Source: a virus | Lineage: Duplodnaviria > Caudoviricetes | Length of the DNA: 62,525 bases | Reading direction: 5' to 3' (one strand) | Virus record (IMG/VR): IMGVR_UViG_3300032224_000950 | Location: 1-62,525 of that record | In this document: positions 4,142 to 47,827 of the stretch, one piece after another | How positions within the stretch are numbered: position 1 is the first letter of the stretch | Layout: each line of letters opens with the position of its first letter | Made by a program: the position numbers and the translations under genes | Notes under the pieces: generated by a model | Databases searched by the model: none | What the model was told of the DNA's origin: nothing | The model's input: only the letters and a program-made list of their open reading frames with translations

Positions 4142-4163
4142 TTAACCTAAGGGAATTGGTACA

Positions 4164-7843: not shown

Positions 7844-8073
7844 TGCATCCTTTAGTTGGTGATATTTCCGATTTAAAGGATTCTGAAATAGAAAGTAAGG
7901 TTTCTGACCTTACTAAAAAATATTTTATAACTAGCAATCCTGGGATTAAAGCTCAAATTGCGGCTGTGTTAGAAACTTATAAAAGCGAAATTAGTCGTCG
8001 ACGAGCAGTTGAATGGCAAAAAATGATGGAAACTCGAGATAAAACTCTTGACAAACTTATTAATATAAGTTAA
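7843..8073 (+). CDS. Hypothetical small helical protein
   Basis: Translationally coupled (TAATG) to the upstream gene. Confidence 0.7.
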   Translation: MHPLVGDISDLKDSEIESKVSDLTKKYFITSNPGIKAQIAAVLETYKSEISRRRAVEWQKMMETRDKTLDKLINIS

Positions 8074-8076
8074 ACT
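8048..8076 (+). promoter_or_regulatory. Sigma70-type promoter
   Basis: TTGACA(8048)-17 bp-TAAACT(8071); spacer is an inverted repeat, AACTTAT-taat-ATAAGTT. Confidence 0.65.
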
Positions 8077-8082
8077 TAGGCA

Positions 8083-16692: not shown

Positions 16693-17155
16693 TCCGATTC
16701 TTAAACAGACGGCAGAAAACTGGGACTTTGAAAATCATGTTAATGCGGCTGTTATAGAACGCGAAATGCTAGAATTAATGAAGGCTAGTAAGGGAATGGG
16801 ACTAGCTGGCAACCAAGTTGGACTACTACGCAGAGTATTTGTTATGCGTACGACAGACGGTCGCGAATTTGGATGTTTTAATCCATGGATCATGTTTGGT
16901 GATAATGATTTCATTACAGGTGATGAAGGGTGTTTAAGTTTCCCAAATCTATGGCTTAAAGTTCCACGTCACAATAAAATCACTGCCAGCTATCTTGACA
17001 ATACAGGAAAACCATGTATAATAGAACTTGAAGGCTTAGATGCTAGATGCTTCCAGCATGAATTAGATCATTTAAATGGAATAACATTTACAGAATATGT
17101 AAGCGATTTAAAATTAACAATGGCCAGAAAAAAACAAAGGAAATTAAATGGTTGA
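16667..17155 (+). CDS. def: Peptide deformylase
   Basis: GMGLAGNQVG, EGCLS, QHELDHLNG. Confidence 0.95.
   Translation: MLKLHKEDDPILKQTAENWDFENHVNAAVIEREMLELMKASKGMGLAGNQVGLLRRVFVMRTTDGREFGCFNPWIMFGDNDFITGDEGCLSFPNLWLKVPRHNKITASYLDNTGKPCIIELEGLDARCFQHELDHLNGITFTEYVSDLKLTMARKKQRKLNG
16995..17022 (+). promoter_or_regulatory. Possible internal sigma70 promoter for clpA inside def
   Basis: TTGACA(16995)-16 bp-TATAAT(17017). Confidence 0.5.
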
Positions 17156-28747: not shown

Positions 28748-31414
28748 ATGTCTTATGTAGACGCATGGTTTGATCGCGAAAACGATGTCATCAAGATCGT
28801 TGAACGCAATAAAAAAGGTGAAAGGGAATTTAGAAACATTCCTGTACGCCACACATTTTATGTAAAAGACCCTAAGGGTAAACATCAATCAATTTATGGA
28901 GATCCTGTACAACGGATCGTCTGTAAAAATACTAAAGAACTTCGTAAAGAACAAGCAATCAATTCAGGTAAGCAGTTATTTGAATCAGACATCAATCCAA
29001 TCTTTGTAACCTTAAGTGAAAACTATCTTAATGCAGATGCTCCAAAACTAAATGTAGCATTTTTCGATATTGAGGTAGACTTCGATCCAGAACGTGGCTA
29101 TGCATCACCCGATGATGCGTTCATGCCAATTACTGCTATCGCTGTTTACCTACAATGGATGGAGACCATGGTATGTCTAGCAGTTCCGCCAAAGACTATT
29201 ACAATGGAAACTGCATTGGAGCAGGTTAAAGAATTTCCAAACACTATGCTGTATAAAACAGAAGCAGAAATGCTAGATGTCTTTTTAGATCTTATCAAAG
29301 ATGCAGATATATTAAGTGGTTGGAATTCAGAAGGTTTCGATATTCCTTACACCACTAATCGTGTTACTAAGGTATTAAGCAAAGAAGATACTCGACGCTT
29401 CTGTTTGTTTGATCAATTTCCTAAACGCAGAGAATATGAAAAGTTTGGTCGTGATAGTGTAACCTATGACTATATTGGTCGCGTTCACTTAGACTATCTT
29501 GAGCTGTACCGTAAGTATACGTATGAAGAACGCCACAGTTATAGACTTGACGCCATTGCGGAATATGAGTTAGGTCAACGTAAAACACAATATGAAGGTA
29601 CGCTCGACCAATTATACAACAATGATTTTAAGACATTTATTGAGTATAATCGCAATGACTGTAAACTATTAGACGACTTAGATAAGAAATTAAAATTCTT
29701 AGATCTTGCTAATACACTAGCACATGAATGTACAGTATTGCTACAAACAACAATGGGTGCTGTGGCTGTTACTGAACAGGCTATTATTAACGAAGCCCAT
29801 AGACGTAATATGCAAGTGCCAAACCGCACTAAGATGGATGAACGTGAAGATAACTCTGCGGCAGGTGCGTATGTAGCGTATCCTAAAGAAGGTATTCACG
29901 ATTGGATTGGCTCACTAGACATTAACAGTCTATATCCAAGTGCCATTCGTGCGCTTAATATGGGTCCGGAAACTATTATTGGTCAATTACGTCAAACTAT
30001 GACTGACGAATATATCGAATTACAAATGGCAAAAGGTAAAAGTTTTGCCGCGGCATGGGAAGGTATGTTCGGTAGTCTAGAGTATACTGCTGTTATGAAT
30101 CAGGAGATTGGAACAGAAATTACGATCGACTGGGAAAACGGCGATGTTGATGTACTAAGTGCCGCAGAAGTATATAGACTTATATTTGAAAGCAATCAAC
30201 CTTGGATGATAAGTGCTAATGGTACTATTTTCTCGCATGAAACAGAAGGTGTTATACCTGGATTACTCAAGCGTTGGTATGCAGAACGTAAGGAAATGCA
30301 GGCTAAACTTAAAGAAGCTATCAATGCTGGTAATAAGATCGAAGAAGAATACTGGGACAAGCGACAGTTAGTTAAGAAGATTAACTTGAACAGTTTGTAT
30401 GGTGCTATTCTTAATCCCGGCTGTAGATTCTTTGACAAACGTATTGGACAATCAACTACTTTAACAGGTCGTCAGATTGTTAAACATATGGCGGCTAAAG
30501 TAAATGAGATTGTTGCTGGAGAATATGACTATCGCGGCAAAGCCATTATCTATGGTGATACTGACTCATGTTACTTTAGTGCTTATAAGACCCTGCAAAA
30601 AGACATCGATGCTGGTCATATTCCCTGGACTAAAGAAAATGTCATACAGTTGTATGATCAAATCGGAGAAGAAGTTAATCAAACATTCCCTCAGTTTATG
30701 TTAGATACATTCCATGTACCAAAGACCCGCGGTGAAGTTATTAAAGCAGGTCGTGAGATTGTTGGCAGTAAGAGTTTGTTCATTACTAAAAAACGTTATG
30801 CTGTTCTTTACTACGATAAAGAAGGCAAACGTGCAGACGTAGATGGTAAACCAGGTAAGATCAAGGCCATGGGCTTGGATTTGAAGCGCAGTGACACTCC
30901 TGAATTTATTCAGAACTTTTTAAGCGATGTTCTTGAAATGGTTCTAATGGGCAAAGAAGAACAAGATGTGTTGGATATGATTACAACGTTTCGTACCCTG
31001 TTCAAAGGTCGACCTGGTTGGGAAAAAGGTAGTCCAAAACGTGCAAATAAGATAACCGAATATCAAGGTAAAGAAACTAAAGCAGGTAAGACTAACATGC
31101 CTGGACATGTTCGAGCTAGTATTAACTGGAATACACTCAAACGTATGTATGGTGACAAGTACAGTATGGGTATTACTGACGGTGCAAAAGTTATCGTATG
31201 TAAACTCAAACCCAATCCGCTGGGATTTACATCAGTTGCATACCCAGTAGATGAGCTAAGACTGCCACAATGGTTTAAAGATTTACCGTTTGATCACGCA
31301 GAGATGGAACAGACTATTATTGACAACAAGTTAGATAATCTAATCGGTGTTCTAAAATGGGACATTAACAGCACTGAAGAAAAGAATACTTTTAATTCAC
31401 TATTTGAGTTTTAA
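28748..31414 (+). CDS. Family B DNA polymerase with 3'-5' exonuclease (T4 gp43-like)
   Basis: FDIE, GWNSEGFD, YN..D exonuclease motifs; DINSLYPS, K...NSLYG, YGDTDS, KKRY. Confidence 0.97.
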   Translation: MSYVDAWFDRENDVIKIVERNKKGEREFRNIPVRHTFYVKDPKGKHQSIYGDPVQRIVCKNTKELRKEQAINSGKQLFESDINPIFVTLSENYLNADAPKLNVAFFDIEVDFDPERGYASPDDAFMPITAIAVYLQWMETMVCLAVPPKTITMETALEQVKEFPNTMLYKTEAEMLDVFLDLIKDADILSGWNSEGFDIPYTTNRVTKVLSKEDTRRFCLFDQFPKRREYEKFGRDSVTYDYIGRVHLDYLELYRKYTYEERHSYRLDAIAEYELGQRKTQYEGTLDQLYNNDFKTFIEYNRNDCKLLDDLDKKLKFLDLANTLAHECTVLLQTTMGAVAVTEQAIINEAHRRNMQVPNRTKMDEREDNSAAGAYVAYPKEGIHDWIGSLDINSLYPSAIRALNMGPETIIGQLRQTMTDEYIELQMAKGKSFAAAWEGMFGSLEYTAVMNQEIGTEITIDWENGDVDVLSAAEVYRLIFESNQPWMISANGTIFSHETEGVIPGLLKRWYAERKEMQAKLKEAINAGNKIEEEYWDKRQLVKKINLNSLYGAILNPGCRFFDKRIGQSTTLTGRQIVKHMAAKVNEIVAGEYDYRGKAIIYGDTDSCYFSAYKTLQKDIDAGHIPWTKENVIQLYDQIGEEVNQTFPQFMLDTFHVPKTRGEVIKAGREIVGSKSLFITKKRYAVLYYDKEGKRADVDGKPGKIKAMGLDLKRSDTPEFIQNFLSDVLEMVLMGKEEQDVLDMITTFRTLFKGRPGWEKGSPKRANKITEYQGKETKAGKTNMPGHVRASINWNTLKRMYGDKYSMGITDGAKVIVCKLKPNPLGFTSVAYPVDELRLPQWFKDLPFDHAEMEQTIIDNKLDNLIGVLKWDINSTEEKNTFNSLFEF

Positions 31415-31415
31415 T

Positions 31416-32195
31416 ATGAAAATTATAATTGCAGGTTATGGATTCGTAGGCAAGGCTGTTGCTAATTCTCTGAAAGAAGATAATGATCTTGTAATCGTAG
31501 ATCCTAAATATACCGATGATAAGATCGTCGATCATTATGATGCAGATGGTATTATCATTTGCGTTGGAACTCCTAGTACCCCTAGCGGTAATTGTGATAG
31601 CAGAGATGTATGCGGAGTACTTGATGAGGTTCCGATATCAATGCCAGTATTAATCAAAAGTACCATAAGCATTGATGTTATAGAAGCATTAAAATTAATT
31701 TATCCTCAGCATGAAATTTGTTATAGTCCAGAATTTTTACGTTCGGCAACTGCTGATAAAGACTTTGCCGATCAGACTTATATGATTCTAGGCGGTGTAG
31801 ATTCAAATAGGGTATGGGAGAATTTATTTAAAAACTCATTAACTAAACTTAAAAGCATATTCTATTGCTCTGTTGAAGAAGCAAGTATAACAAAGTATAG
31901 TATCAATTCTTTTTTAGCGACCAAAGTATCTTTTTTTAATCAGATATATGATGTATGTCAAGCTAGTGGAATCAATTATGATACTGTACGTAGTTTGATT
32001 ACACAGGACAAACGGATTGGCGGATCACATACGCAGGTTCCTGGTCCAGATGGAGGTCGTGGGTTTGGCGGACATTGCTTTCCAAAAGACACAAAATCAT
32101 TTAGAAAATATGCCTACGGCCTAAATAAACCTATTACTGTTTTAGATTCAGCAATAGATTATAACGAAACGGTAAGAAAAGACGTTGACCTTTAA
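31416..32195 (+). CDS. UDP-glucose/GDP-mannose dehydrogenase-like protein lacking the C-terminal UDP-binding domain
   Basis: IAGYGFVG, IKST, SPEFLR, K...N..LA.K..F.N, GFGGHCFPKD. Confidence 0.85.
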   Translation: MKIIIAGYGFVGKAVANSLKEDNDLVIVDPKYTDDKIVDHYDADGIIICVGTPSTPSGNCDSRDVCGVLDEVPISMPVLIKSTISIDVIEALKLIYPQHEICYSPEFLRSATADKDFADQTYMILGGVDSNRVWENLFKNSLTKLKSIFYCSVEEASITKYSINSFLATKVSFFNQIYDVCQASGINYDTVRSLITQDKRIGGSHTQVPGPDGGRGFGGHCFPKDTKSFRKYAYGLNKPITVLDSAIDYNETVRKDVDL

Positions 32196-32213
32196 TAAAA
32201 ATCTAAGTATAAT
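32185..32213 (+). promoter_or_regulatory. Sigma70-type promoter for the clamp/dpdA operon
   Basis: TTGACC(32185)-17 bp-TATAAT(32208). Confidence 0.75.
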
Positions 32214-32235
32214 CATAACACATGGAGAATCATAA

Positions 32236-32967
32236 ATGAAAGACTTTTTACAAGACCTAGTAGCCCATACACATAGTTTGGGCTTTTTACCTCTGGTCAA
32301 GGTAACTGCATCAGATAAAGAAACTAAGATTGAATCGATGGCAGAGGATCGTTCAGTAATATTAAATGCAACTACACATAATCCTGTAGATAATCTTGAA
32401 GGTACATTTGGTATGCCGAATCTTAATAAATTAGATTTGCATTTAAAGTGTCCTGAATACAAAGAGGGTGCAGGCATTAGCGTAGTTAAGCAAAATAGAA
32501 ATGGTGATGACATTCCGACAGGTCTACATTTTCAAAATGCCAGTGGCGACTTTGAAAATGACTATCGTTTTATGAATCAAGATATTATTAACGAAAAACT
32601 AAAATCAGTAAAATATAAAGGATCAGGATGGGATGTCGAATTCCAACCAACTGTTTCTAGTATACAGCGTTTAAAATACCAAGCGGCGGCACACACTGAG
32701 GAAACAACATTTCAAGTTAGTACTGATAGTAATAATCTAGTTTTTAGTTTCGGTGATGCAAGCACACACGCAGGATCATTTACTTTCCAAAGCGGTGTTA
32801 CAGGTAAATTAAAACAAAAGTGGTCTTGGCCTGTTAATCAAGTGCAAAGTATTTTAGGTCTCAGCGGCGATATTACAATGCGTATTGCTGATGCAGGTGC
32901 ATTACAAATTACAGTAGACAGCGGTATCGCTATGTACGATTATATCCTTCCAGCACAAAGCAAGTAA
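32236..32967 (+). CDS. Putative DNA sliding clamp (gp45/PCNA-like)
   Basis: 243 aa; two-domain beta/alpha pattern; ends YILPA like PCNA/beta clamps; near polB, and a clamp loader is present. Confidence 0.7.
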   Translation: MKDFLQDLVAHTHSLGFLPLVKVTASDKETKIESMAEDRSVILNATTHNPVDNLEGTFGMPNLNKLDLHLKCPEYKEGAGISVVKQNRNGDDIPTGLHFQNASGDFENDYRFMNQDIINEKLKSVKYKGSGWDVEFQPTVSSIQRLKYQAAAHTEETTFQVSTDSNNLVFSFGDASTHAGSFTFQSGVTGKLKQKWSWPVNQVQSILGLSGDITMRIADAGALQITVDSGIAMYDYILPAQSK

Positions 32968-33170
32968 TGGAAACTAAAAAAAGAACAATAGTAAGAATGT
33001 TAACATACAGACTTACTGCTTGGTTGTTTACTATTTTTTGGACATACTTGTTTACCGGAGATATCGGTAGTGCTACAGGGTTTGCCACGGCACTACATAT
33101 TCTTCTAAGCATAGATTACTACATACACGAAAGAATTTGGTTAAAAATTAAGTGGGGTCGAATTGAATAA
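32967..33170 (+). CDS. DUF2061-like small membrane protein
   Basis: ET.KRT....TYR...YY.HER.W..I.WG pattern. Confidence 0.7.
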   Translation: METKKRTIVRMLTYRLTAWLFTIFWTYLFTGDIGSATGFATALHILLSIDYYIHERIWLKIKWGRIE

Positions 33171-34872
33171 AAACTTAACAGCTACACAAAATGACTATGC
33201 ATATTTTTTACCAGCAACATCTGGTTTCTATAGTACGTTCATAGGCAAACAACGTTACGGCAACTATGTTGATCCGGCACGTTTGCCTCAATCTTTTACT
33301 AATGGTGTTGAAGGTTTAAATTATCTTGAACCTGATAAGGGTATGTTTTATTATGATCATTGCTTGTATTCAGCTGGTCATGCTAATCTAGATTTATCTA
33401 AACAAGATGACAGTGAAGATATGTTTCGTAACAGAGATCGTACTACTAGTTGGGTACTAGGTGATTCTGGAGGATTCCAGATTGGTAAAGGTGTATGGGA
33501 AGGCGAGTGGAATGATCCTACAGGACCAGTAGTTGCACAACGTATGGCTGAAGCGATTGCCAAAGGTGTTGAACTAGTTCCACAAGTACATCCTACAGGT
33601 CATCCTAAAACAGATAAGAATGGTAATCCAAAGCATACTAAAGTTGATCATGTTAAACTTTATCAAGCACAATTAGATGCCGCACAGAAAAAACGTGAAC
33701 TAGTGTTAAACTGGATGGATACCCTTATGGACTATGGTATGGTCTTAGATATTCCAGCGTGGGTATGCCGTAGTCCGGCTGGCATTAGGGCTACTGGTAT
33801 TTCAACTTATCAAGAAGCTGTAGAAGCTACAAAGTATAATAATGAATATTTCATTAAACATCGTACAGGCGCTTGTAAATTCTTAAATGTATTACAAGGT
33901 GAAAATCATATCGATGCCGAAAACTGGTATGATGAAATGAAAAAATTCTGTGATCCTAACCAATATGATAAACCATTTAATGGTTGGGCAATGGGTGGAC
34001 AGAATATGTGCGATGTTCATCTAGTATTAAAAAGATTAGTAACATTACGATTCGATGGACTTCTTGAAAAAGGTCATCAGGATTGGATGCACTTCTTGGG
34101 CACTTCTAAATTAGAGTGGGCAGTTCTTTTAACCGATATTCAACGTGCTGTTAGGAAATACCATAATGAAAACTTTACCATCTCTTTTGATTGCGCATCA
34201 CCGTTCCTTGCCACAGCAAATGGACAAATCTATATGGCAACGGAAACTCCCGACGGTGACAAATGGGTTTACCGTATGCAGGCTTCTGCAGACGACAAAA
34301 AATATTCGACAGACACAAGATTATTCAAAGACGCAGTAGTACAAGATAATATCTTTGATAGGTTTGAAACCAGTCCGATTATCGATCAAGTAGAGATGAA
34401 AGACATTTGTATCTATGCACCCGGTGACCTAAATAAAGTAGGTAAAGAAGGTCGTACAAGTTGGGATAGTTTTACCTATGCAATTATGATGGGTCATAAT
34501 GTTTGGATGCATTGTAATGCCGTACAAGAAGCTAATCGCCAAAGTGATGCTGGAATAATTCCAGCTATGTTAAGTGCTACTACCGCAGATAGGTCGCATA
34601 GAGATTATAGTCCTGCTCCAAATAAATTTAAAGATATCGTAGATTTAATATTTTCTATCGATAACAAACAAGATGCGCTCGATTTGGTTGAATTTTATGG
34701 ATCATATTTTGATAGCATAATCGGTACTAGAGGTAATACAGGAGATCGAATTACCAATGCTAGTGCCAAAGCAGACGAGTTTGGCTTTCCTGCGGTTGAC
34801 TTTAGTGACCTAAAAGCTGTAAAATCAGAGAAAGCAACACCTATTTTAAACGATTCACTTTTTGAGTTTTAA
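33163..34872 (+). CDS. dpdA: TGT-fold DNA guanine transglycosylase (DpdA-like)
   Basis: TGT motifs in order: GDSGGFQ, MVLDIP, NVLQG, GWAMGG, MHFLG, ISFDCASP, HN; no CxCxxC zinc site; clustered with folE/queE; TTG start. Confidence 0.8.
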   Translation: MNKNLTATQNDYAYFLPATSGFYSTFIGKQRYGNYVDPARLPQSFTNGVEGLNYLEPDKGMFYYDHCLYSAGHANLDLSKQDDSEDMFRNRDRTTSWVLGDSGGFQIGKGVWEGEWNDPTGPVVAQRMAEAIAKGVELVPQVHPTGHPKTDKNGNPKHTKVDHVKLYQAQLDAAQKKRELVLNWMDTLMDYGMVLDIPAWVCRSPAGIRATGISTYQEAVEATKYNNEYFIKHRTGACKFLNVLQGENHIDAENWYDEMKKFCDPNQYDKPFNGWAMGGQNMCDVHLVLKRLVTLRFDGLLEKGHQDWMHFLGTSKLEWAVLLTDIQRAVRKYHNENFTISFDCASPFLATANGQIYMATETPDGDKWVYRMQASADDKKYSTDTRLFKDAVVQDNIFDRFETSPIIDQVEMKDICIYAPGDLNKVGKEGRTSWDSFTYAIMMGHNVWMHCNAVQEANRQSDAGIIPAMLSATTADRSHRDYSPAPNKFKDIVDLIFSIDNKQDALDLVEFYGSYFDSIIGTRGNTGDRITNASAKADEFGFPAVDFSDLKAVKSEKATPILNDSLFEF

Positions 34873-35124
34873 ATGACACTACCTGATGAACGATATCGAG
34901 CAGTAATGCAGACCCAGAGGTTTCTCTTAAGGTTATTAACTACTCCCCGAGTTCCTAAAGCCGTTAAAGATGAAGCTAGAGCTTGTTTACGACATTATCC
35001 TAGCGAATACGATATGAAAAAAGTATCGCAAACAAGTGCTGACATATTTGCTGAACGTATGGAAGATGTTGAACGTATGTTTAAACGATACGAACAATTA
35101 CAGGCAGAAAAAAATGAAACGTGA
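34873..35124 (+). CDS. BPSL0761-like small protein
   Basis: MTLPDER.RA.....FL..L...P.VP..V...A...LRHYP pattern. Confidence 0.6.
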   Translation: MTLPDERYRAVMQTQRFLLRLLTTPRVPKAVKDEARACLRHYPSEYDMKKVSQTSADIFAERMEDVERMFKRYEQLQAEKNET

Positions 35125-35665
35125 TTATACTAGTGGTACAAGCGAAGGCGTCACCTTTTTTATTGGTTCAGAAATAGAGCGTACTCCTGCATTTGGTATG
35201 CGTACACTATTTGTAGTAGGCACACACGATCCTCAAACAGTATTACATATTGCAAATGATACACAGACTTATCTTGACGAAAGCAAACGTATCAAGCATA
35301 TCTACTTTGGTGCTAATCAAAGTTTTAAAACTAAAGGTGTAAATGATGTAGAAGGTTGGCGACCTTGGGAAGACATGATTAAAAGCTGTTTAGATGCAGG
35401 ATACTGGTGTACTTTAGACTTTGACGTGTGCGAACATGAAGGTCTTCTCGAGAGCGGTTTAACCGAAAATCGTAGATTTATTCCACAAATTAGTGTAAAA
35501 TTGCCTTATCTAAGTCAACTAGGCTATAATGCTACAATTAAAATTGATGATAAAGATTTTGATGCAACTAATCCAGGTGTATGGTGTATTCCAATTGGTG
35601 CTATTACACAACGCAAGTATTTTACCAATTGGGATGAATATACAAACGATGAAATCATAAAGTGA
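35114..35665 (+). CDS. Hypothetical protein in the modification cluster
   Basis: Likely start ATG 35114; IYFGANQSF and KIDDKDF..TNPGVWC segments; no family recognised. Confidence 0.7.
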   Translation: MKRDYTSGTSEGVTFFIGSEIERTPAFGMRTLFVVGTHDPQTVLHIANDTQTYLDESKRIKHIYFGANQSFKTKGVNDVEGWRPWEDMIKSCLDAGYWCTLDFDVCEHEGLLESGLTENRRFIPQISVKLPYLSQLGYNATIKIDDKDFDATNPGVWCIPIGAITQRKYFTNWDEYTNDEIIK

Positions 35666-36309
35666 TAAATTATAAAGTCCATCCGATACCTAATCGAGGC
35701 TTCTTGTTAGCCGATATTCCTGCTGACGTTCTTTCTTTTGTAAAAAACGAAATTGACAATATTTCAAACAACAGAACTACTGCTAAAAAGATGACTAGTG
35801 AACTTGTTGGTCAAATCGCAAATGAATTTGAAATGTTCGATTCAAGATCGATTATTGAACAACTATCATTAGAATTAGTAAATGAATATGAAAGGCATTT
35901 TAAACATGCCGGTATAAGATGTGATGTTTTGCAAAATCTTAAATTAAATCCATCATCATTTGAGCTTGGCCCATTATGGGTGAACTTTCAAAAGAAACAT
36001 GAATACAACCCTCCGCATAAACATTCGGGCGTATATAGCTTTGTAATGTGGATTAAAATCCCTTATAATATAAAAGACGAAAGGATAGCAGAAAATTCAG
36101 TTAACTCATTTAGAAATAGCAACGGAATTTTCTATTTTCAATTTATCGATTCGTTAGGTGATATCAATAAGTTTTCAATTGATGCTGATTCATTATACGA
36201 AGGTAAAATGTTATTTTTTCCTGCAGAGATGTGGCATGGTGTGAATCCATTCTTTTCATCAGATGACGAAAGAATTTCAATTAGCGGCAATATATTTTTA
36301 AAGGTATAA
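35662..36309 (+). CDS. 2OG-Fe(II) oxygenase-like protein
   Basis: WVN......YNPPHKH...SFV; distal H (WHGV); RISISGN. Confidence 0.75.
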   Translation: MINYKVHPIPNRGFLLADIPADVLSFVKNEIDNISNNRTTAKKMTSELVGQIANEFEMFDSRSIIEQLSLELVNEYERHFKHAGIRCDVLQNLKLNPSSFELGPLWVNFQKKHEYNPPHKHSGVYSFVMWIKIPYNIKDERIAENSVNSFRNSNGIFYFQFIDSLGDINKFSIDADSLYEGKMLFFPAEMWHGVNPFFSSDDERISISGNIFLKV

Positions 36310-36310
36310 G

Positions 36311-36706
36311 ATGAATATTAAGCAAGACATACGACCAAACAAAATGATCTGGGTTACTTTCCGCAAAGAAGGTATTCATAAATATCCTGCGGCACTAACA
36401 GATCCAGCATTAGCTACAGGAGATGAATATGATGTATCGTTTTTGGGTTACCCTCATCGCCACATCTTTCATTTCAGGGTGTGGATCAGTGTGCAACATA
36501 ATGACAGGGACATCGAGTTCATCCAGTTCAAACGATGGCTCGAGTCGCTGTATAATGGTCAAGGTTCCACTCTAAGCCTTGACTACAAGAGTTGTGAAAT
36601 GATGTCAGACAATCTGTTTGATGTTATTTCCAATAAGTATCCAAGTCGAGAGATTTGGATTGAGATCTCCGAAGACGGAGAAAATGGTAGTTTTATCAAA
36701 TACTAA
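36311..36706 (+). CDS. QueD-like T-fold protein of DpdL type
   Basis: EGIH...LGYPHRHIF...IEF..FK...SCE...EISED; QueD CxxxHGH replaced by LxxxHRHxF. Confidence 0.7.
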   Translation: MNIKQDIRPNKMIWVTFRKEGIHKYPAALTDPALATGDEYDVSFLGYPHRHIFHFRVWISVQHNDRDIEFIQFKRWLESLYNGQGSTLSLDYKSCEMMSDNLFDVISNKYPSREIWIEISEDGENGSFIKY

Positions 36707-36717
36707 AAGAGGCTGCA

Positions 36718-36957
36718 ATGGCTAAGAACTATAAAGAATATAATTATTTTGAAAATCGTCCCGATGTAGTAAAGGTCTTTGAAGACCTTGAGACATATCA
36801 TGATTTTTGTCGCTTGGAAATGTTTCCATTCGATGAAAGTCATCTCTACAACAGAGACAGTTGGGCATGGCGCAATTACGAAAAAAGCAAGCGTCCAAAA
36901 AAAGCGTTCAATGGCGAACGTAAACCATATCAAGGTAATAAGCCACGGTACAATTAA
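36718..36957 (+). CDS. Hypothetical protein
   Basis: GAGG RBS; coupled to the downstream gene. Confidence 0.65.
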   Translation: MAKNYKEYNYFENRPDVVKVFEDLETYHDFCRLEMFPFDESHLYNRDSWAWRNYEKSKRPKKAFNGERKPYQGNKPRYN

Positions 36958-38054
36958 TGACAATTTTTTTAATTGATCTAGAAGCAGTCGAGACAAGGTA
37001 CACGGGTCAGTGGAAGACTCATGTACCTGCTCTCTTACGAAAGGCAGGACACAATGTTCAAATTATCTCTGGGCCTACGGATATTCCTACAGCCACTACT
37101 CCTGGTGCTTTTCTTAATTTTGGTGGCACCAATATATACAAGTCTGCTCAAGTTGAACAAATGGGCCGTTTATTTTGTAGCGGATCCGTTCATCCCGGCG
37201 ACCACTTTATTTTTACTGACGCTTGGCATCCGGGCATTATAAATTTAAAGTATATGAGTGAGTTATTGGGCATCCCAGTAACAACACACGGCTTGTGGCA
37301 TGCTGGATCATATGATCCTCAAGACTTTTTAGGCAGACTAGTTGGCAACAAGCCTTGGGTTAGAAATGCTGAAAAAAGTTTCTTCCACGCATTTGATCAC
37401 AACTACTTTGCCACAGACTTTCATATCCGAATGTTTGTTACTAATCTATTAAACGATTATCCTACAGAAAATCCGTGGCTAGAAGAAGACCTAGCAGATA
37501 TTATTGCAGGAGAAGATCCTAGATTTGTGCGCACAGGCTGGCCAATGGAATATATGGCTGATACATTAACCATGTATAAGAATATGCCCAAACGTGATCT
37601 TATTCTTTTTCCGCATCGCATCGCACCTGAGAAGCAAGTTGAGATTTTTCGAGACCTAGCTACACACTTACCGCAGTATGAATTTGTAGTGTGTCAGGAT
37701 CAACAACTAACAAAAAATGAATATCATAACCTGTTAGGCGAAGCGAAGATGGTGTTTAGTGCTAACTTACAAGAAACTCTAGGCATTAGTTGCTATGAAG
37801 GTGCGGTGGTTGACGCTATTCCTATGGTTCCGGATCGTTTAAGTTATACTGAGATGTATTATGATACGTTCAAGTATCCGAGTGTGTGGACTAACGACTA
37901 TGATACATATACTGTATATCGTCCAGATTTATGTCGTAGAATAATAGAACATATGGATAACTACTCCACTAGAATTCCACAAGTTCGCAAACAGACACAT
38001 GATTTAACTGAAAACTTTTTCTCAGCACACGCATTATTAGAAAGAATCAAATGA
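36957..38054 (+). CDS. GT-B fold glycosyltransferase (GT4-like)
   Basis: FPHRIAPEKQ and QETLGISCYEG (E-x7-E) donor-binding motifs. Confidence 0.75.
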   Translation: MTIFLIDLEAVETRYTGQWKTHVPALLRKAGHNVQIISGPTDIPTATTPGAFLNFGGTNIYKSAQVEQMGRLFCSGSVHPGDHFIFTDAWHPGIINLKYMSELLGIPVTTHGLWHAGSYDPQDFLGRLVGNKPWVRNAEKSFFHAFDHNYFATDFHIRMFVTNLLNDYPTENPWLEEDLADIIAGEDPRFVRTGWPMEYMADTLTMYKNMPKRDLILFPHRIAPEKQVEIFRDLATHLPQYEFVVCQDQQLTKNEYHNLLGEAKMVFSANLQETLGISCYEGAVVDAIPMVPDRLSYTEMYYDTFKYPSVWTNDYDTYTVYRPDLCRRIIEHMDNYSTRIPQVRKQTHDLTENFFSAHALLERIK

Positions 38055-38509
38055 TACTTAAACTTTTAGAACGTCTTGGCCGTAAACGTATTATCATGGA
38101 TCGAGTAGATAACGAGCCGTATTTAGAACGTTACTACCTATTTCTTAAAGAACGCAAGACTTTTCCGTTTAATATTTTTTTACATAAGTTTTTAAAAGGT
38201 GATCCGGACGATGTTCATGATCACCCGTGGCCATACGCCACGTTAATCTTAAAGGGCGGCTATTACGAATGGATTCCCCAATTCAATGCAGACGGTACAA
38301 AGTCTTGTGAAATTCGTAAATGGCGTGGACCCGGACATTTCCGTATTTGTAGTCCCAACAGTTATCATCGTATTGAATTAAAAGAAGGTGTAACTGCTTG
38401 GACATTGTTTATGCCCGGACCACAAACGAGAGAATGGGGTTTTTTCGTTAACAACAAGTGGATACATAATGACTTATACTTATACAGTAGGAAACGGCAC
38501 AATAACTAA
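38051..38509 (+). CDS. Cupin-fold protein
   Basis: HDHPW....ILKGGYYE...YHRI...WTLF. Confidence 0.65.
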   Translation: MILKLLERLGRKRIIMDRVDNEPYLERYYLFLKERKTFPFNIFLHKFLKGDPDDVHDHPWPYATLILKGGYYEWIPQFNADGTKSCEIRKWRGPGHFRICSPNSYHRIELKEGVTAWTLFMPGPQTREWGFFVNNKWIHNDLYLYSRKRHNN

Positions 38510-38888
38510 TGGCGGTGGATTAACCGGTAGTTCTGGAACTATAACATTATCTAATACTACCGGATCTACCTATACCCTTGCATCGGGTACAGGCGGTGCC
38601 GGACAAATTTATACATCTACAGGAATTAATGGTGCAACATGGGCCAATCCAACTGACAATGTAATGATTGTTAAACAAAATCCTGCTAGTTTAGAAGTAA
38701 AGGGTAATGTAGTAATAAACGGAAGAGATCTAGAAGAACGGTTAAAGACAATGGAAAAACTCTTGCAAATCCCAGAAAGAGATGTTAAACTAGAAAAAAA
38801 GCACCCAAAGTTAAAGAAGTTATACGATGACTACATTAATGCTTTGGGAAAATACAGAACATTCGAAGCAATTAAAGGAGATGAATGA
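38469..38888 (+). CDS. Hypothetical protein with T/G-rich N-terminus and coiled-coil C-terminus
   Basis: ORF continuity; coupled to the next gene. Confidence 0.65.
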   Translation: MTYTYTVGNGTITNGGGLTGSSGTITLSNTTGSTYTLASGTGGAGQIYTSTGINGATWANPTDNVMIVKQNPASLEVKGNVVINGRDLEERLKTMEKLLQIPERDVKLEKKHPKLKKLYDDYINALGKYRTFEAIKGDE

Positions 38889-39124
38889 TGAAAGAATTAC
38901 ATGAATCAATAGCGCATACTGCAACAGAAGTGACTATTAAAGAGAATTCTGGTTTTAGAATTCGTTTAGAAAAACACGAAGTAGTTGCGCCTAAGGGATT
39001 GTTTAGCCTTGACATTATTCAAGAGTCATTAGATGAAGACGGACTAGTTCGTGATTCGCAAACTTATAATTTCTTTATGACTAAAGAAGAATTGCAATCA
39101 TTAGCTAACGGTTTAACTGCATGA
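38885..39124 (+). CDS. Hypothetical protein
   Basis: AAGGAG RBS. Confidence 0.65.
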   Translation: MMKELHESIAHTATEVTIKENSGFRIRLEKHEVVAPKGLFSLDIIQESLDEDGLVRDSQTYNFFMTKEELQSLANGLTA

Positions 39125-39612
39125 AAAAAGTTTACTATACTTGGCAACAAGTAGAGGGTGCGTGTTTAGACATTGCTCGACAAATGAGCAATCATAATTG
39201 GCGACCTGATTATATTGTTGGCATTACTAGAGGCGGCCTTGTTCCTGCTAACTTGCTTAGTCAATATACAGGTATTAAAATGAACAGCTTAGACATTAGT
39301 CTGCGTGATGGTGGAGACACTGTTAGCAACTGTGGCATGGCAGAAGATGCATTCGAAGGCAAAAAGATCCTTGTTGTAGATGATATCAATGATCAAGGAT
39401 CTACTGTTAATTGGATTAAGCATGATTGGGAATCGAGTGCATTGCCTGGTCATCCTAATTGGGAAACTATTTGGGGGGATTCGGTTCGCTTTGCGGTTTT
39501 AACACATAATCTTAGCAGTCAATTTAAAGATCCAGATTATTATGTTTGGACTGTGAATAAAGCAGAAGAAGATTGTTGGTTAGTTTATCCTTGGGAGGAT
39601 TTTTGGTTATGA
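39121..39612 (+). CDS. Purine phosphoribosyltransferase (xanthine/guanine PRT, Gpt-like)
   Basis: GITRGGLVPA, LVVDDINDQGST PRPP-binding motif, WLVYPWE. Confidence 0.85.
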   Translation: MKKVYYTWQQVEGACLDIARQMSNHNWRPDYIVGITRGGLVPANLLSQYTGIKMNSLDISLRDGGDTVSNCGMAEDAFEGKKILVVDDINDQGSTVNWIKHDWESSALPGHPNWETIWGDSVRFAVLTHNLSSQFKDPDYYVWTVNKAEEDCWLVYPWEDFWL

Positions 39613-39806
39613 CATCAGCATTAATTAAATTAATTTTAGGCATTACATTAATTGCAATTGCCGTTATATTTGGACCGTTGCTCGGCATTTGGTCCTTGAA
39701 TATATTATTTCCAGTACTTAATATTCCATATACATGGGAAACATGGCTGGCTTACTTTTTAATATTTGGTAGTTTGACTGGATTACGGTTTGGATCTAAA
39801 AAATGA
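39609..39806 (+). CDS. Small membrane protein
   Basis: ATG 39609 coupled to the PRTase stop; hydrophobic. Confidence 0.6.
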   Translation: MTSALIKLILGITLIAIAVIFGPLLGIWSLNILFPVLNIPYTWETWLAYFLIFGSLTGLRFGSKK

Positions 39807-39982
39807 GACAAGTGGATCAATTAAATCAGATATCTATAGAAAATCTCAAAGAAAAAATCGAACAGGTAGAATCCGATATTAAAAAAATGGCTGCCGAATC
39901 TGGAAATGATAAGAAAATTTCATTACTGATTGAATATAAAGATTATCTTAATGATGAACTTAAGGCATTAGAAAACAAATGA
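39803..39982 (+). CDS. 59-aa coiled-coil protein absent from the ORF track
   Basis: MRQVDQLNQISIENLKEKIEQVESDIKK...ENK*; ATGA overlaps at both ends fill the gap exactly. Confidence 0.7.
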   Translation: MRQVDQLNQISIENLKEKIEQVESDIKKMAAESGNDKKISLLIEYKDYLNDELKALENK

Positions 39983-40197
39983 CAGAAAATACTGTTACTA
40001 CAGTATGGGAAATTGTAATACCCTGGCATAATCAAGATAATAATTGGTGGAATGAAACTTGTGCCAGTGTTGTAGAAGTATTTGGATTACCAGGAGATCG
40101 ATATACATATAATCCACGATATGAAGATATGCGATTTCTTTTTACCTCAAAAAAGGATTATCAATTATGCAAGATTCTATTATCAGACAAAATTTAG
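39979..40197 (+). CDS. Hypothetical protein
   Basis: Coupled ORF; WWNETCA..E.FGLPG.RY. Confidence 0.65.
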   Translation: MTENTVTTVWEIVIPWHNQDNNWWNETCASVVEVFGLPGDRYTYNPRYEDMRFLFTSKKDYQLCKILLSDKI

Positions 40198-40394
40198 ATT
40201 TTTATAGCGTCGTAGTATTGGGTATTATAGGTTTTATTTTTGCGATCTGGTGGAATTATTCAAATCCGCATATGATTGTCAAATATGATTGTTCAATTGC
40301 AGAAATAAGTCCAGACTATCCTATTGCAGTAAAAGAAGGCTGTCGTAAACTTCGAGCAGAAAATGCTAAGGAAAACTTGCAAAAACCTAAATAA
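40167..40394 (+). CDS. Small membrane protein
   Basis: One TM segment followed by a YDC...PDYP...C segment. Confidence 0.55.
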   Translation: MQDSIIRQNLDFYSVVVLGIIGFIFAIWWNYSNPHMIVKYDCSIAEISPDYPIAVKEGCRKLRAENAKENLQKPK

Positions 40395-40405
40395 AACTGT
40401 ATACT
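40377..40405 (+). promoter_or_regulatory. Sigma70-type promoter upstream of folE, with TAAATA in the spacer
   Basis: TTGCAA(40377)-17 bp-TATACT(40400). Confidence 0.6.
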
Positions 40406-40446
40406 AATACAAAGACATCCACGTCATTAACTCGGAGAATAATAAA

Positions 40447-41184
40447 TTGACTGAATCAGTAACATATAAAAACATAGACGACAAGGGCTATGAAGAAGGC
40501 TATCTAGGCGATGCCATACGCTTTAAGATGAAACGTGACCGGAAACGCTTTTGGGCGGGTGATAATATTAGTGATTACTTGCACGAGGGCGATGTAGAGA
40601 AACTAATCGATGAAGCAACAGAAGCATTTGAAGTTGTACTTGATCGATTGCTTATTGATCGTGAAAATGATCCTAACTCGCATGGTACTGCGAAGCGACT
40701 TGCTAAAATGTACTTTAATGAAATAATGGCAGGAAGATATGAACCAGCACCAGACGCAACAGCGTTCCCAAATGATTCAGAGGACCGTTACGAAGGTATG
40801 TTGGTTGTCCGTAGTGAGCTTCGCAGTATGTGTAGCCATCATCACCAACCCGTTGTTGGCGTTGCTTATATTGGTATTATTGCGGCTGAGAAACTCATCG
40901 GACTTAGCAAGTATACGCGGATCGCTCAGTGGTGTGCCCGTCGAGGTACTCTCCAGGAGGAACTTTGCAATGACATTGCTAGGGAAATCCAAAAAGCCAC
41001 AGGCGCAACAGACTTAGGCGTGTACATTCAAGCAACACATGGTTGCTGTGAGAATCGCGGCATTATGGCACACTCTAGTCTAACACAGACTACTGTACTT
41101 AAAGGTGCATTTACCAACGATGCTGGTACAAAGAAAGAATTCTTTGACAATATTAAAATGCAACAGGAGTATGCGTCAAAATGA
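40447..41184 (+). CDS. folE: GTP cyclohydrolase I
   Basis: SMCSHH, GLSK..R, LQE, HGC...RG; TTG start after GGAGA. Confidence 0.93.
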   Translation: MTESVTYKNIDDKGYEEGYLGDAIRFKMKRDRKRFWAGDNISDYLHEGDVEKLIDEATEAFEVVLDRLLIDRENDPNSHGTAKRLAKMYFNEIMAGRYEPAPDATAFPNDSEDRYEGMLVVRSELRSMCSHHHQPVVGVAYIGIIAAEKLIGLSKYTRIAQWCARRGTLQEELCNDIAREIQKATGATDLGVYIQATHGCCENRGIMAHSSLTQTTVLKGAFTNDAGTKKEFFDNIKMQQEYASK

Positions 41185-41579
41185 CATCATTAGAAATACA
41201 AGTACCTGCCGAAGGCATTATGAAAACAAACGATTGGGGAGACTCAAAAGTTTATCGTGTTACTTGCAACTGTGGCGCTGCCGATCACGATCATCATGTA
41301 TGGGTAGAAGCAGATGACCACGAAGTCAGTGTTACTATCTATACAACTGTAAAAAGCAATTGGTGGAGTAAAACTCGCTGGCATGCTATTTGGACACTGT
41401 TAACCAAAGGCTACATCGATACAGAGTCTACTGTAATTATGCATAAACAACAGGCTTTCAATTATGCACATACACTACTAAGTGCTGTAGAAGATGTTAA
41501 TATGTTTCGTAATACTAGACAAAATAAAGAAGAACGTGCTACAATAAAGAAAATGGCAAATGAACAGGATTGCGTATGA
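41181..41579 (+). CDS. Hypothetical protein with a CxC...H motif
   Basis: VTCNCG...HDH; coupled between folE and queE. Confidence 0.65.
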   Translation: MTSLEIQVPAEGIMKTNDWGDSKVYRVTCNCGAADHDHHVWVEADDHEVSVTIYTTVKSNWWSKTRWHAIWTLLTKGYIDTESTVIMHKQQAFNYAHTLLSAVEDVNMFRNTRQNKEERATIKKMANEQDCV

Positions 41580-42439
41580 GTAAAATCAAAATAGCAGAAT
41601 TATTTTATAGTGTGCAAGGTGAAGGACGTTACATGGGTGTACCGTCTGTTTTCTTACGTACATTTGGTTGTAACTTTAAGTGTGCTGGATTTGGTATGCC
41701 ACGTGGCGAATTAAGCATGGAGGCCGCTGGTATTGCGGCTACACATAGTCTGGTTACACCTTTTCAAAAGTACGAAGAGCTTCCGCTTGTTAGTACAGGC
41801 TGTGATAGTTATGCAAGCTGGATGCCAGAGTTTAAAGATTTAAGCCCAATGCTTACCAGTGAAGCGATTGCAGATCGCATTATGGAAATTCTTCCGCAGG
41901 ATCATTGGAAAGACGAGCACTTGGTAATTACAGGTGGCGAACCTTTACTAGGTTGGCAACGTGCTTATCCAGACTTGTTAGATCATCCTAAAATGTCAGG
42001 CTTAAAAGAAATTACATTTGAAACAAACGGCACTCAAAAGCTAACAGAAGAGTTTAAAGAATATCTAGTAAAATGGCAAATGCCTAATTTAGATTTTGCT
42101 AGAGAAGTTACATTTTCAGTAAGTGCTAAACTTCCGTGTAGTGGCGAGAAGTGGGAAGACGCAATACTTCCAGAAGTAGTTTGTGAGTACGAAGACTTTG
42201 GTACAGCATATTTGAAATTTGTTATTGCTACAGAACAAGACTTTGCTGATGCAGAATGTGCTATTGCGGCTTATCGTACGGCAGGATTTAAAGGACATGT
42301 TTATTTAATGCCAGTAGGTGGCGTAGAAAGTGTGTACGCAATGAACAATAAAAATGTAGCAATATTGGCTATGAAAAACGGCTTACGTTATAGTGACCGT
42401 TTACAAGTGCCATTATTTAAAAATGAGTGGGGGACTTAA
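41576..42439 (+). CDS. queE: 7-carboxy-7-deazaguanine synthase (radical SAM)
   Basis: ELFYSVQGEG, FLRTFGCNFKC...CDS, ITGGEP, ETNGT. Confidence 0.88.
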   Translation: MSKIKIAELFYSVQGEGRYMGVPSVFLRTFGCNFKCAGFGMPRGELSMEAAGIAATHSLVTPFQKYEELPLVSTGCDSYASWMPEFKDLSPMLTSEAIADRIMEILPQDHWKDEHLVITGGEPLLGWQRAYPDLLDHPKMSGLKEITFETNGTQKLTEEFKEYLVKWQMPNLDFAREVTFSVSAKLPCSGEKWEDAILPEVVCEYEDFGTAYLKFVIATEQDFADAECAIAAYRTAGFKGHVYLMPVGGVESVYAMNNKNVAILAMKNGLRYSDRLQVPLFKNEWGT

Positions 42440-46652: not shown

Positions 46653-47753
46653 ATGAGCGAAGTTATTAGCCGCACCGTTGGTCCCAAAGGTGCAAAAAAA
46701 TCTCTCCGTAAAGCGTTTAAAAATAAACGTCCAATTTTCATGTGGGGTCCTCCCGGAATTGGTAAATCAGACATTATCAAACAACTTGGTACAGAGCTCG
46801 ATGCTCATGTGATTGACGTTCGTTTGAGTTTGTGGGAACCTACTGACATTAAAGGTATTCCATATTTTGACTCAAATACTAGCAAAATGGTTTGGGCTCC
46901 TCCTAGCGAATTGCCAGATGCAGAAATGGCAAAACAGCATAAGACTATTATCTTATTCATGGACGAAATGAACTCAGCGGCTCCTAGTGTACAGGCCGCG
47001 GCTTATCAGTTGATTTTGAATCGCCGTGTTGGTACTTACTCATTGCCAGACAATGTTGTAATGGTAGCGGCAGGCAATCGTGAAACTGACAAAGGTGTTA
47101 CATTCCGTATGCCTGCTCCGCTAGCTAACCGTTTCGTTCACTTAGAACTAACTGTTGATTGGGATGATTATTTCGAGTGGGCTACTGAAAATAAGATCCA
47201 CAAAGATGTAGTTGGTTTCTTGTCTTTTAGCAAGAAAGACTTGTACGACTTTGATCCGAAATCTAGCTCACGTGCTTTTGCTACACCACGTTCTTGGTCA
47301 TTTGTATCTGAGCTACTACATGATGACGATACTGATGCAGATACACTAACTGATTTAGTGAGCGGTTCAGTTGGCGAAGGTCTTGCTATTAAGTTTATGG
47401 CGCATCGTAAACATGCTAGCAAGATGCCGAACCCGACAGATATTCTGATCGGTAAAGTTAAGAAAATGGATTCAAAAGAAATCTCAGCTATGTATTCTTT
47501 GACTATTAGCCTGTGCTATGAACTTAAAGATGCATGCGATAAAAATGCTAAAAATTGGAATGATCAAGTTAATAACTTTTTCCAATTTATGATGGATAAT
47601 TTTGAAACAGAATTAGTTATCATGGGTACTAAATTGGCATTATCTACTTACAAACTGCCGTTAGATCCAGATGAAATCAAATGTTTTGATGCATTCCATG
47701 CGAAATTTGGCAAGTATATTGCGGCCGCTACTGACAAGGAATCTCGCAAATAA
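46653..47753 (+). CDS. MoxR-like AAA+ ATPase
   Basis: GPPGIGKS, FMDEMN, AAGNR, PLANRF, TPRSW. Confidence 0.88.
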   Translation: MSEVISRTVGPKGAKKSLRKAFKNKRPIFMWGPPGIGKSDIIKQLGTELDAHVIDVRLSLWEPTDIKGIPYFDSNTSKMVWAPPSELPDAEMAKQHKTIILFMDEMNSAAPSVQAAAYQLILNRRVGTYSLPDNVVMVAAGNRETDKGVTFRMPAPLANRFVHLELTVDWDDYFEWATENKIHKDVVGFLSFSKKDLYDFDPKSSSRAFATPRSWSFVSELLHDDDTDADTLTDLVSGSVGEGLAIKFMAHRKHASKMPNPTDILIGKVKKMDSKEISAMYSLTISLCYELKDACDKNAKNWNDQVNNFFQFMMDNFETELVIMGTKLALSTYKLPLDPDEIKCFDAFHAKFGKYIAAATDKESRK

Positions 47754-47769: not shown

Positions 47770-47798
47770 TTGACACCTCCTTCGGGAGGTGTTATACT
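47770..47798 (+). promoter_or_regulatory. Sigma70 promoter whose spacer is a cUUCGg hairpin
   Basis: TTGACA(47770)-17 bp-TATACT(47793); ACACCTCC-TTCG-GGAGGTGT. Confidence 0.8.
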
Positions 47799-47827
47799 AT
47801 ATACATAGTAACAATTTAGGAGCAATA

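Follow-up and report, generated by a model that had tools for sequence, protein, structure and literature searches.

What base does a 7-deazaguanine cluster put into phage DNA when the cluster lacks QueC and is accompanied by a glycosyltransferase (GT)? The question is raised by a Caudoviricetes contig that constitutes the entire public record IMGVR_UViG_3300032224_000950 (linear, 62,525 bases; hereafter the window), in which the whole cluster is co-oriented on the + strand after the DNA polymerase gene polB. The initial annotation of this DNA described a cluster that modifies DNA with deazaguanine, lacks QueC, and includes a transglycosylase of the DpdA type, and the comparisons reported here support that description. 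The QueC-less deazaguanine core is of an already published kind, that of Cellulophaga phage phiST, and the new part is a conserved GT partner. The variant with this partner is a real, well-conserved module, and comparison of its sequences makes a sugar-bearing deazaguanine product plausible. The partnership of the GT with DpdL is so far unreported in the literature covered, with most subscription journals and the supplement of Cui et al. lying outside that coverage. The genes that carry the argument are listed below. Retention was counted among 80 close relatives, and only loci spanning the position of a gene were counted, so that the denominators vary.

33163-34872, + strand: DpdA3-like protein, predicted DNA guanine transglycosylase, long form of 569 aa (transglycosylase fold, DpdA3 homology)
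36311-36706, + strand: DpdL, a QueD paralogue and proposed decarboxylase of 7-carboxy-7-deazaguanine (CDG) (LGYPHRHIF signature)
36957-38054, + strand: GT4-type (GT-B) glycosyltransferase, 365 aa, two genes downstream of DpdL (homologues match PF00534)
40447-41184, + strand: FolE, GTP cyclohydrolase I (PF01227, 131 bits; kept in 54/54 relatives)
41570-42439, + strand: QueE, CDG synthase of the radical SAM type (five QueE NCBIfam models; kept in 51/52 relatives)

The GT was found together with DpdL in several groups of phages. In a phage collection, 22 records carry a GT homologue, 28 carry DpdL and 17 carry both, and these 17 represent six lineages, namely Phosso, the PA5oct group, ACP17, BUDD, X1, and BCSR5. 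The gap between the two genes is 0–1.4 kb in Phosso, PA5oct, ACP17, and BUDD, 2.7 kb in BCSR5, and ~1.5 kb in X1 (from match coordinates only). Five isolate loci (PA5oct, Phosso, ACP17, BUDD, and BCSR5) were read for gene content, and in all five the GT is directly adjacent to DpdL or DpdA3. Between the window and PA5oct, Phosso, and ACP17, the GT is 36–50% identical and DpdL 54–66% identical. A scan of viral contigs ranked by the divergent GT of BUDD yielded 80 loci, 76 of them with DpdL nearby, and three of the four loci without DpdL start <400 bases upstream of the GT, i.e., the upstream sequence is missing. Clustering of 164 GT sequences (five isolates, 158 contig loci, and the window) placed DpdL in the flank of 31/31 clusters at 70% identity and of 11/11 clusters at 50% identity. 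Cluster counts, not locus counts, are the fair measure here because some loci of both scans share contigs. The initial annotation had expected the GT, an oxygenase, and a cupin to stay syntenic with dpdA in relatives. For the GT the expectation is strongly borne out, with DpdL in every 70% cluster and in 17/22 of the phage records that carry a GT homologue; the oxygenase and the cupin, taken up below, did not follow.

The GT call itself was reached through homologues, and the gene lies where the initial annotation had placed it, two genes downstream of the QueD variant. Five of six family members match PF00534 (best E 6.8e-12) and two match PF13692, and the family profile searched against the PDB retrieved the GT4 enzymes WlaC (E 8e-4) and 8xsg (E 3e-3). 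The identity as a GT4-type enzyme is accordingly that of the homologues of the window protein, and the GT-B fold is that expected for the family. E273-x7-E281, R221, and K226 are invariant in six GT sequences that are 25–52% identical; we take the E-x7-E pair and the basic residues to be donor-binding features of GT4 enzymes. Judged from these residues, the family is catalytically plausible. In Xanthomonas phage PhiXhv-12 (locus 4819-8053), a distant GT comes directly after GlmS and a deacetylase of the LmbE type, in a record that gave no match to DpdL, and this context hints that the wider GT family may handle N-acetylglucosamine (GlcNAc) or glucosamine-type sugars.

The partner of the GT, noted initially as a QueD-variant T-fold gene, is DpdL. 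The stretch LGYPHRHIF at 36443-36469 fits LxxxHRHxF, which stands in place of the CxxxHGH of QueD, and Cui et al. (2023; PMC10516641) have used LxxxHRHxF as the signature that defines DpdL, the proposed CDG decarboxylase. By tblastn, the protein is 54.5% identical (E 1e-34) to DpdL of ACP17 and 31% identical (E 4e-9) to CGPG_00067 of phiST. Two of ten aligned DpdL homologues carry HFH instead. DpdL is kept in 72/73 spanning relatives. The T-fold tie to QueD is only partial, as hhalign of DpdL against QueD profiles gave 87% probability over 43 C-terminal columns only, and PF01242 was not detected in DpdL by HMMER. Decarboxylation by DpdL is only a published prediction, and heterologous tests failed (PMC10516641). 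In the GT-less Rhizobium phage RHph_I1_18 (locus 6971-8232), the gene after DpdL (58% identical to that of the window) encodes a macro-domain (Appr-1-p processing) protein, which is another possible partner for DpdL chemistry.

The transglycosylase was recognized mainly through its predicted structure and through comparison of family profiles. The 569-aa protein contains the motif DSGGFQ at 33463-33480, and its AlphaFold2 (AF2) model, built from a 78-sequence alignment of 50%-cluster representatives, has a predicted local distance difference test score (pLDDT) of 91 and a predicted TM score (pTM) of 0.88. With this model, Foldseek against the PDB placed tRNA-guanine transglycosylases (TGT/QTRT), bacterial or eukaryotic, at all of the first 11 ranks, the best being 1wkd (E 5.9e-8, prob 1.00, TM 0.37 normalized to the query length and 0.53 to that of the target). 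Alignment by hhalign of the 78-sequence family with a DpdA3 set (ACP17, BUDD, BCSR5, and phiST) gave a probability of 97.8% and E 1.1e-12 over 174 columns. D101, S102, G104, P198, H310, and D343 are invariant in the 78 sequences and D196 is at least 90% conserved; the conserved Asp residues are presumably the counterparts of TGT D102, D156, and D280. Searches with sequence models were negative. None of the 78 family members matches Pfam TGT (PF01702) by HMMER, the single 569-aa protein has no Pfam, PHROG, or NCBIfam match and phmmer against the PDB returned nothing, and family profiles searched against PDB TGT sequences gave E 0.3 at best or nothing, the 78-sequence profile returning a chance match only. 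The missing PF01702 match is read as distance and not as exclusion because the published DpdA3 call also needed HHpred (PMC10516641). The gene is kept in 62/66 spanning relatives, and in Phosso it lies ~170 kb away from the GT-DpdL locus. Viral contigs were also scanned with three divergent DpdA3-like representatives, one protein per scan, and no locus was obtained. The TGT-fold gene of the initial annotation at 33163 is thus a DpdA3-type protein, for which exchange of guanine in DNA is predicted from profile comparison and the structural model.

The rest of the core concerns the synthesis of CDG. FolE and QueE were both named at the outset, and both are present, FolE by a clear match and QueE by models below their cut-offs together with homology. 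QueE matches its five NCBIfam models at E 1e-11 to 1e-14, each time short of the curated cut-off (54.8 bits vs 206), scores 24.5 bits for Radical_SAM vs a cut-off of 29.5, and has no CxxxCxxC; its homologues include the proteins annotated as QueE in PA5oct and BUDD. C34 and C38 are invariant, and an insert (39 residues in the window) separates them from the third Cys, which is part of GCDS. Such an insert is common to QueE of the window, PA5oct, BUDD, and phiST, and the canonical C-x3-C-x2-C is found in Phosso, ACP17, and BCSR5. No match to QueC, QueF, or ArcS/DUF5591 was obtained at E<=1 within the 62.5-kb window, which agrees with the initial annotation, and no canonical QueD (CxxxHGH or PF01242) was found in the window. 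Absence of a gene from the window proves little alone because the window is only ~17% of the genome (CheckV completeness). The search for queC and queD across a full genome, suggested by the initial annotation, was run on a relative, G001, which is 353 kb long, 98% complete, and collinear with the window at an offset of 110–112 kb. A canonical QueD (PF01242, 52 bits) lies in G001 ~14 kb left of the position where the window begins, and QueD is also present in G002, G003, and G005, i.e., in three of four other large relatives. Neither QueF nor ArcS was found in G001. The sole QueC signal in G001 is a match of 26 bits over the first 68 model positions (the PP-loop) in a 310-aa protein ~75 kb from the module. 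This protein (SGGADS; G001:69937-73134, ORF 991-1923, minus strand) adjoins a fatty-acid desaturase, has no PDB match, and gives E 0.005 against a QueC-like PHROG. It was not called QueC, as the match is limited to the PP-loop and covers just the first third of the QueC model; the protein may be an unrelated ATP-pyrophosphatase or an amidotransferase that has diverged very far. Because QueD is present in G001, QueF and ArcS are absent there and the QueC signal is confined to the PP-loop, the lineage is best read from its gene content as having FolE, QueD, QueE, DpdL, and DpdA3 without QueC.

A core of this type has been described with its product in one lineage. Cui et al. have reported 2'-deoxy-7-deazaguanine (dDG) in phiST, which has a QueC-less set of FolE, QueD, and QueE with DpdL and DpdA3 (PMC10516641). 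The DNA of phiST contained 302,000 dDG per million nucleotides and no 2'-deoxyguanosine (dG) (Table 1, PMC10516641). Like the window lineage, phiST has FolE, QueD, QueE, a DpdL with LxxxHRHxF, a distant TGT-fold DpdA3, and no QueC, its module lies beside a DNA polymerase gene, and its genome holds a purine phosphoribosyltransferase (PRTase) homologue. Unlike the window, phiST has no homologue of the GT or of the protein encoded at 35114, carries a MazG-like gene next to its DpdL, and has a DpdA3 of 259 aa vs 569 aa. The product is proven for phiST only, and none of the six viruses with mass spectrometry (MS) data in Table 1 of Cui et al. is among the GT matches (PMC10516641). The loci of PA5oct, Phosso, and ACP17 have a gene order in common with the window, namely polB, a clamp-like gene, a DpdA3-like gene, the GT, DpdL, QueE, and a 5'-3' exonuclease; they differ in having no 2-oxoglutarate (2OG) oxygenase, cupin, or dehydrogenase at the locus. 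The DNA of PA5oct has been reported to resist five restriction enzymes with G-containing sites and to be cut by nucleases specific for modified G, with no identity given for the base (PMC12191111).

From these parts, the following pathway can be proposed. GTP would be converted to CDG by FolE and QueE of the cluster and by a QueD from another part of the genome, and DpdL would process the CDG, the published proposal being decarboxylation to 7-deazaguanine. The long DpdA3-like transglycosylase would swap guanine in the phage DNA for the deazaguanine base. The GT4-type enzyme, encoded one small gene after DpdL, would transfer a sugar from a nucleotide-sugar, either to the deazaguanine base before insertion or to the base already in DNA, and virion DNA would carry a sugar-bearing deazaguanine in place of plain dDG. 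Sequence comparison establishes which genes are present, their homologies, and their synteny. The literature supplies the CDG pathway, the finding of dDG in phiST, and the role of DpdL (a proposal there as well); the action of the GT in the pathway, the sugar used, and the accepting atom are what we infer. The initial annotation had offered either CDG or the decarboxylated 7-deazaguanine as the inserted base, and it is the decarboxylated option that matches the published DpdL/dDG system (PMC10516641). That the CDG-DpdL-DpdA3 core is a system for replacing G in DNA is very likely. Action of the GT in the deazaguanine pathway is probable, and a sugar on the virion base is a tentative proposal that falls somewhat below an even chance. 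The full description, a phage DpdA3/DpdL 7-deazaguanine module with the GT as an extra conserved component and a sugar-bearing deazaguanine as its product, comes close to an even chance without reaching it. A narrower form, in which the GT-DpdL pair is a second deazaguanine branch and an N- or C-glycosylated 7-deazaguanine replaces guanine, is possible, with odds well below even.

Comparisons with characterized GTs bear on this proposal. HuiG, in the biosynthesis of huimycin, glycosylates a free 7-deazaguanine-derived base with uridine diphosphate (UDP)-GlcNAc, and the huimycin cluster family reportedly counts GTs (PF13439) among its decorating enzymes (10.64898/2026.04.15.718813). HuiG resembles the phage GT in being encoded beside deazapurine core genes and in accepting a 7-deazaguanine-derived base, which the phage GT is proposed to do. 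Unlike the phage GT, HuiG acts on free O-methylated preQ0 and belongs to an actinomycete secondary-metabolite cluster which has QueC and no DpdA. The T4 beta-glucosyltransferase and other phage DNA GTs, which are likened to the present GT by role only, decorate a non-canonical base after replication and thereby evade restriction; the T4 enzyme has the GT-B fold. Known acceptors of phage DNA GTs are hydroxymethyl or hydroxy pyrimidines, and no purine acceptor was found in the literature listings searched. A pyrimidine hydroxymethylation pathway, which would supply another acceptor for the GT, was absent from the 20 further window ORFs scanned. No description of a glycosylated deazaguanine in DNA was found in a literature search that covered subscription journals thinly. 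We know of no glycosylated purine in any DNA, and the proposed base would be the first.

The alternative that survives best is that the module makes plain dDG as in phiST and that the GT serves something else. The GT might be a structural helper of DpdL/DpdA3, might form a transient sugar-linked intermediate, or might have another target and be merely co-inherited with DpdL. This alternative is possible, with a substantial minority share of the probability. It is favored by phiST itself, a GT-less phage with FolE, QueD, QueE, DpdL, and DpdA3 that has all dDG and no dG (PMC10516641), by 7-deazaguanine having no obvious O-glycosylation site, and by the lack of any nucleotide-sugar synthesis gene conserved with the module. 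Because plain 7-deazaguanine has no hydroxyl handle, naming N2, O6, or C7/C8 (as a C-glycoside) as the accepting atom in our proposal is guesswork. Besides these points, several others weigh against a sugar-bearing product. The window GT itself has no Pfam GT match above threshold, and DpdA3 is in the fetched flank of only 7/11 GT clusters at 50% identity. DpdL occurs without the GT in 11/28 phage records, comprising the phiST group, RHph_I1_18, Ahp1, D479, Bakedbeans, BUCT-ZZ01, and MA9V-3 (the loci of RHph_I1_18, Ahp1, and D479 were read), and DNA chemistry has been measured in no DpdL lineage other than phiST. The GT is thus not needed for a working DpdL/DpdA3 system, because phiST works without it. 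In five phage records, a distant GT homologue (25% identity) occurs without DpdL; PhiXhv-12, described above, is the one of the five whose locus was read. Neither the DpdA3 nor the DpdL activity is known to have been reconstituted (PMC10516641).

Three observations speak against a GT with an unrelated duty. Catalytic-type residues are invariant across GT members that are 25–50% identical, which argues for an active enzyme, and adjacency to DpdL in 31/31 GT clusters is hard to explain by drift. In addition, dpdA and dpdL of ACP17, introduced into E. coli without the GT, gave no dDG, and the authors have suggested that other enzymes may be needed (PMC10516641). The failure of the ACP17 genes is weak evidence on this point because the phiST dpdA/dpdL pair also gave no dDG in a heterologous test (PMC10516641).

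A second alternative places the modification in the nucleotide pool and centers on the PRTase of the cluster, which the initial annotation had listed correctly.

39121-39612, + strand: purine (xanthine/guanine-type) PRTase (PF00156, E 7e-14)

According to this alternative, the PRTase would make a CDG or 7-deazaguanine ribonucleotide, as TubC does in the tubercidin pathway, which would be reduced, phosphorylated to a 7-deaza-dGTP analogue, and incorporated by polB. The route is improbable, and so is the secondary or proofreading role that it would leave to DpdA3. Tubercidin clusters are QueC-less and use CDG, a PF00156 PRTase, and a decarboxylation step (10.64898/2026.04.15.718813), all of which recall the window. 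They are unlike the window in that the decarboxylase is of the UbiD family and not a T-fold DpdL, no transglycosylase is present, and the product is a free nucleoside antibiotic. The distribution of the PRTase also lends the route some support. Homologues occur in 15 records of the phage collection, 12 of them from the Cellulophaga phiST group (5), Campylobacter phages (6), and Synechococcus phage BUCT-ZZ01 (1), and the phiST group and Campylobacter phage CP220 have been reported as fully substituted DpdA3 phages (PMC10516641). A weak syntenic homologue lies inside the PA5oct module. Cui et al. also cite earlier work that detected a 7-amido-7-deazaguanine (ADG) nucleoside in the cytoplasm of cells infected with CP220 (PMC10516641). 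On the other side, the PRTase is kept in just 47/70 spanning relatives and has no match in the loci of ACP17, BUDD, BCSR5, and Phosso. Its best matches are xanthine/guanine salvage enzymes (XPRT model, E 1.3e-12, under the cut-off), which fits recycling of excised guanine. Moreover, every deazaguanine phage encodes a DpdA, which has been read as evidence of post-replicative insertion (PMC10516641). The terms phosphoribosyl and glycosyl each occur 0 times in the main text of Cui et al. (PMC10516641). In the proposed pathway with a glycosylated base, the PRTase most likely salvages the guanine released by DpdA3; alternatively, by analogy with tubercidin, it may activate the deazapurine base.

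A third alternative is the scheme of the initial annotation, in which an oxygenase or cupin creates a hydroxyl handle, a nucleotide-sugar dehydrogenase supplies a UDP-uronic acid, and the GT attaches the sugar. The three genes are indeed present in the window.

31404-32195, + strand: truncated nucleotide-sugar dehydrogenase-like gene (PF03721, PF00984), a doubtful member of the cluster
35662-36309, + strand: 2OG-Fe(II) oxygenase (phrog_81, PF13759)
38051-38509, + strand: cupin-like phrog_4786 protein (kept in 61/72 close relatives)

All four genes, with the GT, are co-oriented within 7 kb of the window, and UDP-glucose dehydrogenases of phages often adjoin GTs, e.g., in Microbacterium phages. 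The scheme has been largely refuted by synteny and is very improbable. The oxygenase was found in 2/73 spanning relatives, both times ~7 kb from its position in the window, and is probably a local insertion outside the module. Members of phrog_4786 are present in 105 phage records, of which 53 belong to Mycobacterium phages and most to phages of unrelated hosts, so that the cupin appears from its distribution to be conserved locally and not specific to the pathway. The dehydrogenase matches TIGR03026 at positions 75-297 of 413 (134 bits vs a cut-off of 189.8), has N-terminal and central domains only, without the C-terminal UDP-binding domain, and is kept in 37/60 relatives. Its central part contains the stretch GGHCFPKD, presumably the catalytic Cys motif. 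None of the three genes has a match in any of the five isolate loci, which all keep the GT-DpdL pair. The oxygenase-made handle and the uronic-acid donor are therefore unsupported, given their poor retention, their absence from the isolate loci, and the truncation of the dehydrogenase. The headline of the initial annotation is half right, as the GT stands and the oxygenase, cupin, and uronic-acid parts have fallen away.

A fourth alternative, that the pathway ends not in a DNA base but in a diffusible, huimycin-like glycosylated deazapurine directed at the host or at competitors during infection, has in its favor that huimycin-type clusters pair deazapurine core genes with a GT acting on the free base, and is very unlikely, since those clusters are reported to lack nucleic-acid insertion enzymes (10.64898/2026.04.15.718813), the module here includes a DpdA3-like transglycosylase with conserved catalytic motifs, and the GT-bearing phage PA5oct has G-modified DNA (PMC12191111).

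The preferred reading, a DpdA3/DpdL module in which the GT may add a sugar to deazaguanine, matters for several reasons. Deazaguanine DNA modifications decide the exposure of phages to restriction enzymes, CRISPR nucleases, and modification-sensing defence nucleases. Among these systems, none is understood less well than the DpdL branch, with a measured product only in the GT-less phiST group. The GT is a concrete candidate for the enzyme missing from DpdL/DpdA3 reconstitution and can be tested in cultured phages including PA5oct. If the sugar is real, DNA glycosylation would extend from pyrimidines to a purine analogue, and the sugar-bearing base would be found in a highly abundant, uncultured jumbo phage clade (~350 kb) and in cultured phages of Pseudomonas, Acidovorax, Xanthomonas, Burkholderia, and Sinorhizobium, with consequences for sequencing and for therapeutic phage design in this large group.

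Three small proteins are encoded among the genes discussed above.

35114-35665, + strand: conserved protein (kept in 65/68 spanning relatives)
36718-36957, + strand: 79-aa protein between DpdL and the GT (kept in 71/76 spanning relatives; no Pfam or PHROG match)
41181-41579, + strand: 132-aa protein between FolE and QueE (CGAADHDH motif; kept in 29/54 relatives)

The protein at 35114 travels with the deazaguanine module. The initial annotation had proposed that its co-occurrence with dpdA be followed across related phages, and the homologue was found in ACP17 between FolE and DpdA3, next to the latter, and in 11 PA5oct-group records elsewhere in the genome, besides its retention in close relatives. 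Its AF2 model has a pLDDT of 85 and gave nothing with Foldseek at E<=0.001. With VIA-align, the best match was a STAS domain (Z 6.8) and QueE chains reached Z 5.4–6.1, all within the noise range stated for the tool. An Atlas feature search gave values <=0.80 (chance level), and a profile search returned only unnamed relatives. The 132-aa protein at 41181 was considered as a hidden QueD and left unassigned, as it has no Pfam, NCBIfam, or phage-database match and only the loose motif CGAADHDH.

Two further genes near the start of the cluster relate the contig to known phages.

28748-31414, + strand: polB (PF00136, 133 bits; a single intact frame of 888 aa)
32236-32967: phrog_12062 protein, clamp-like, after polB (kept in 61/65 relatives)

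The contig comes from a phage whose relatives include Pseudomonas phage PA5oct and Sinorhizobium phage Phosso, and it is regarded as a fragment of a jumbo phage genome because its relatives reach 353 kb. The window polB is ~50% identical to the polB of PA5oct and Phosso, and the three share the gene order DsbA-like, polB, clamp-like, deazaguanine genes, and 5'-3' exonuclease. In PA5oct (locus 2608-7834), polB is annotated as two pieces with a Hef-like homing endonuclease between them, and the window polB is intact. The annotation of the phrog_12062 homologue differs between these phages, being a sliding clamp in Phosso, whereas in PA5oct it is a structural protein of the virion that was detected by MS. 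A megablast search of the phage collection with the region returned no match. Metagenomes contain the clade in great abundance, as 6947/8000 scored candidates match the 569-aa protein at E<=0.001, and >599 viral-contig stretches match the GT patterns.

Other genes of the window lie outside the cluster. A MoxR-like AAA ATPase (46653-47753) is followed by a DUF2201 metallopeptidase/VWA protein (47789-49015), a conserved phage pair of unclear role. A 757-aa double-AAA chaperone of the ClpB/Hsp104 type is encoded at 17148-19421, and a full DnaJ, with a J domain and a C-terminal domain, lies ~0.5 kb from it at 15832-16692.

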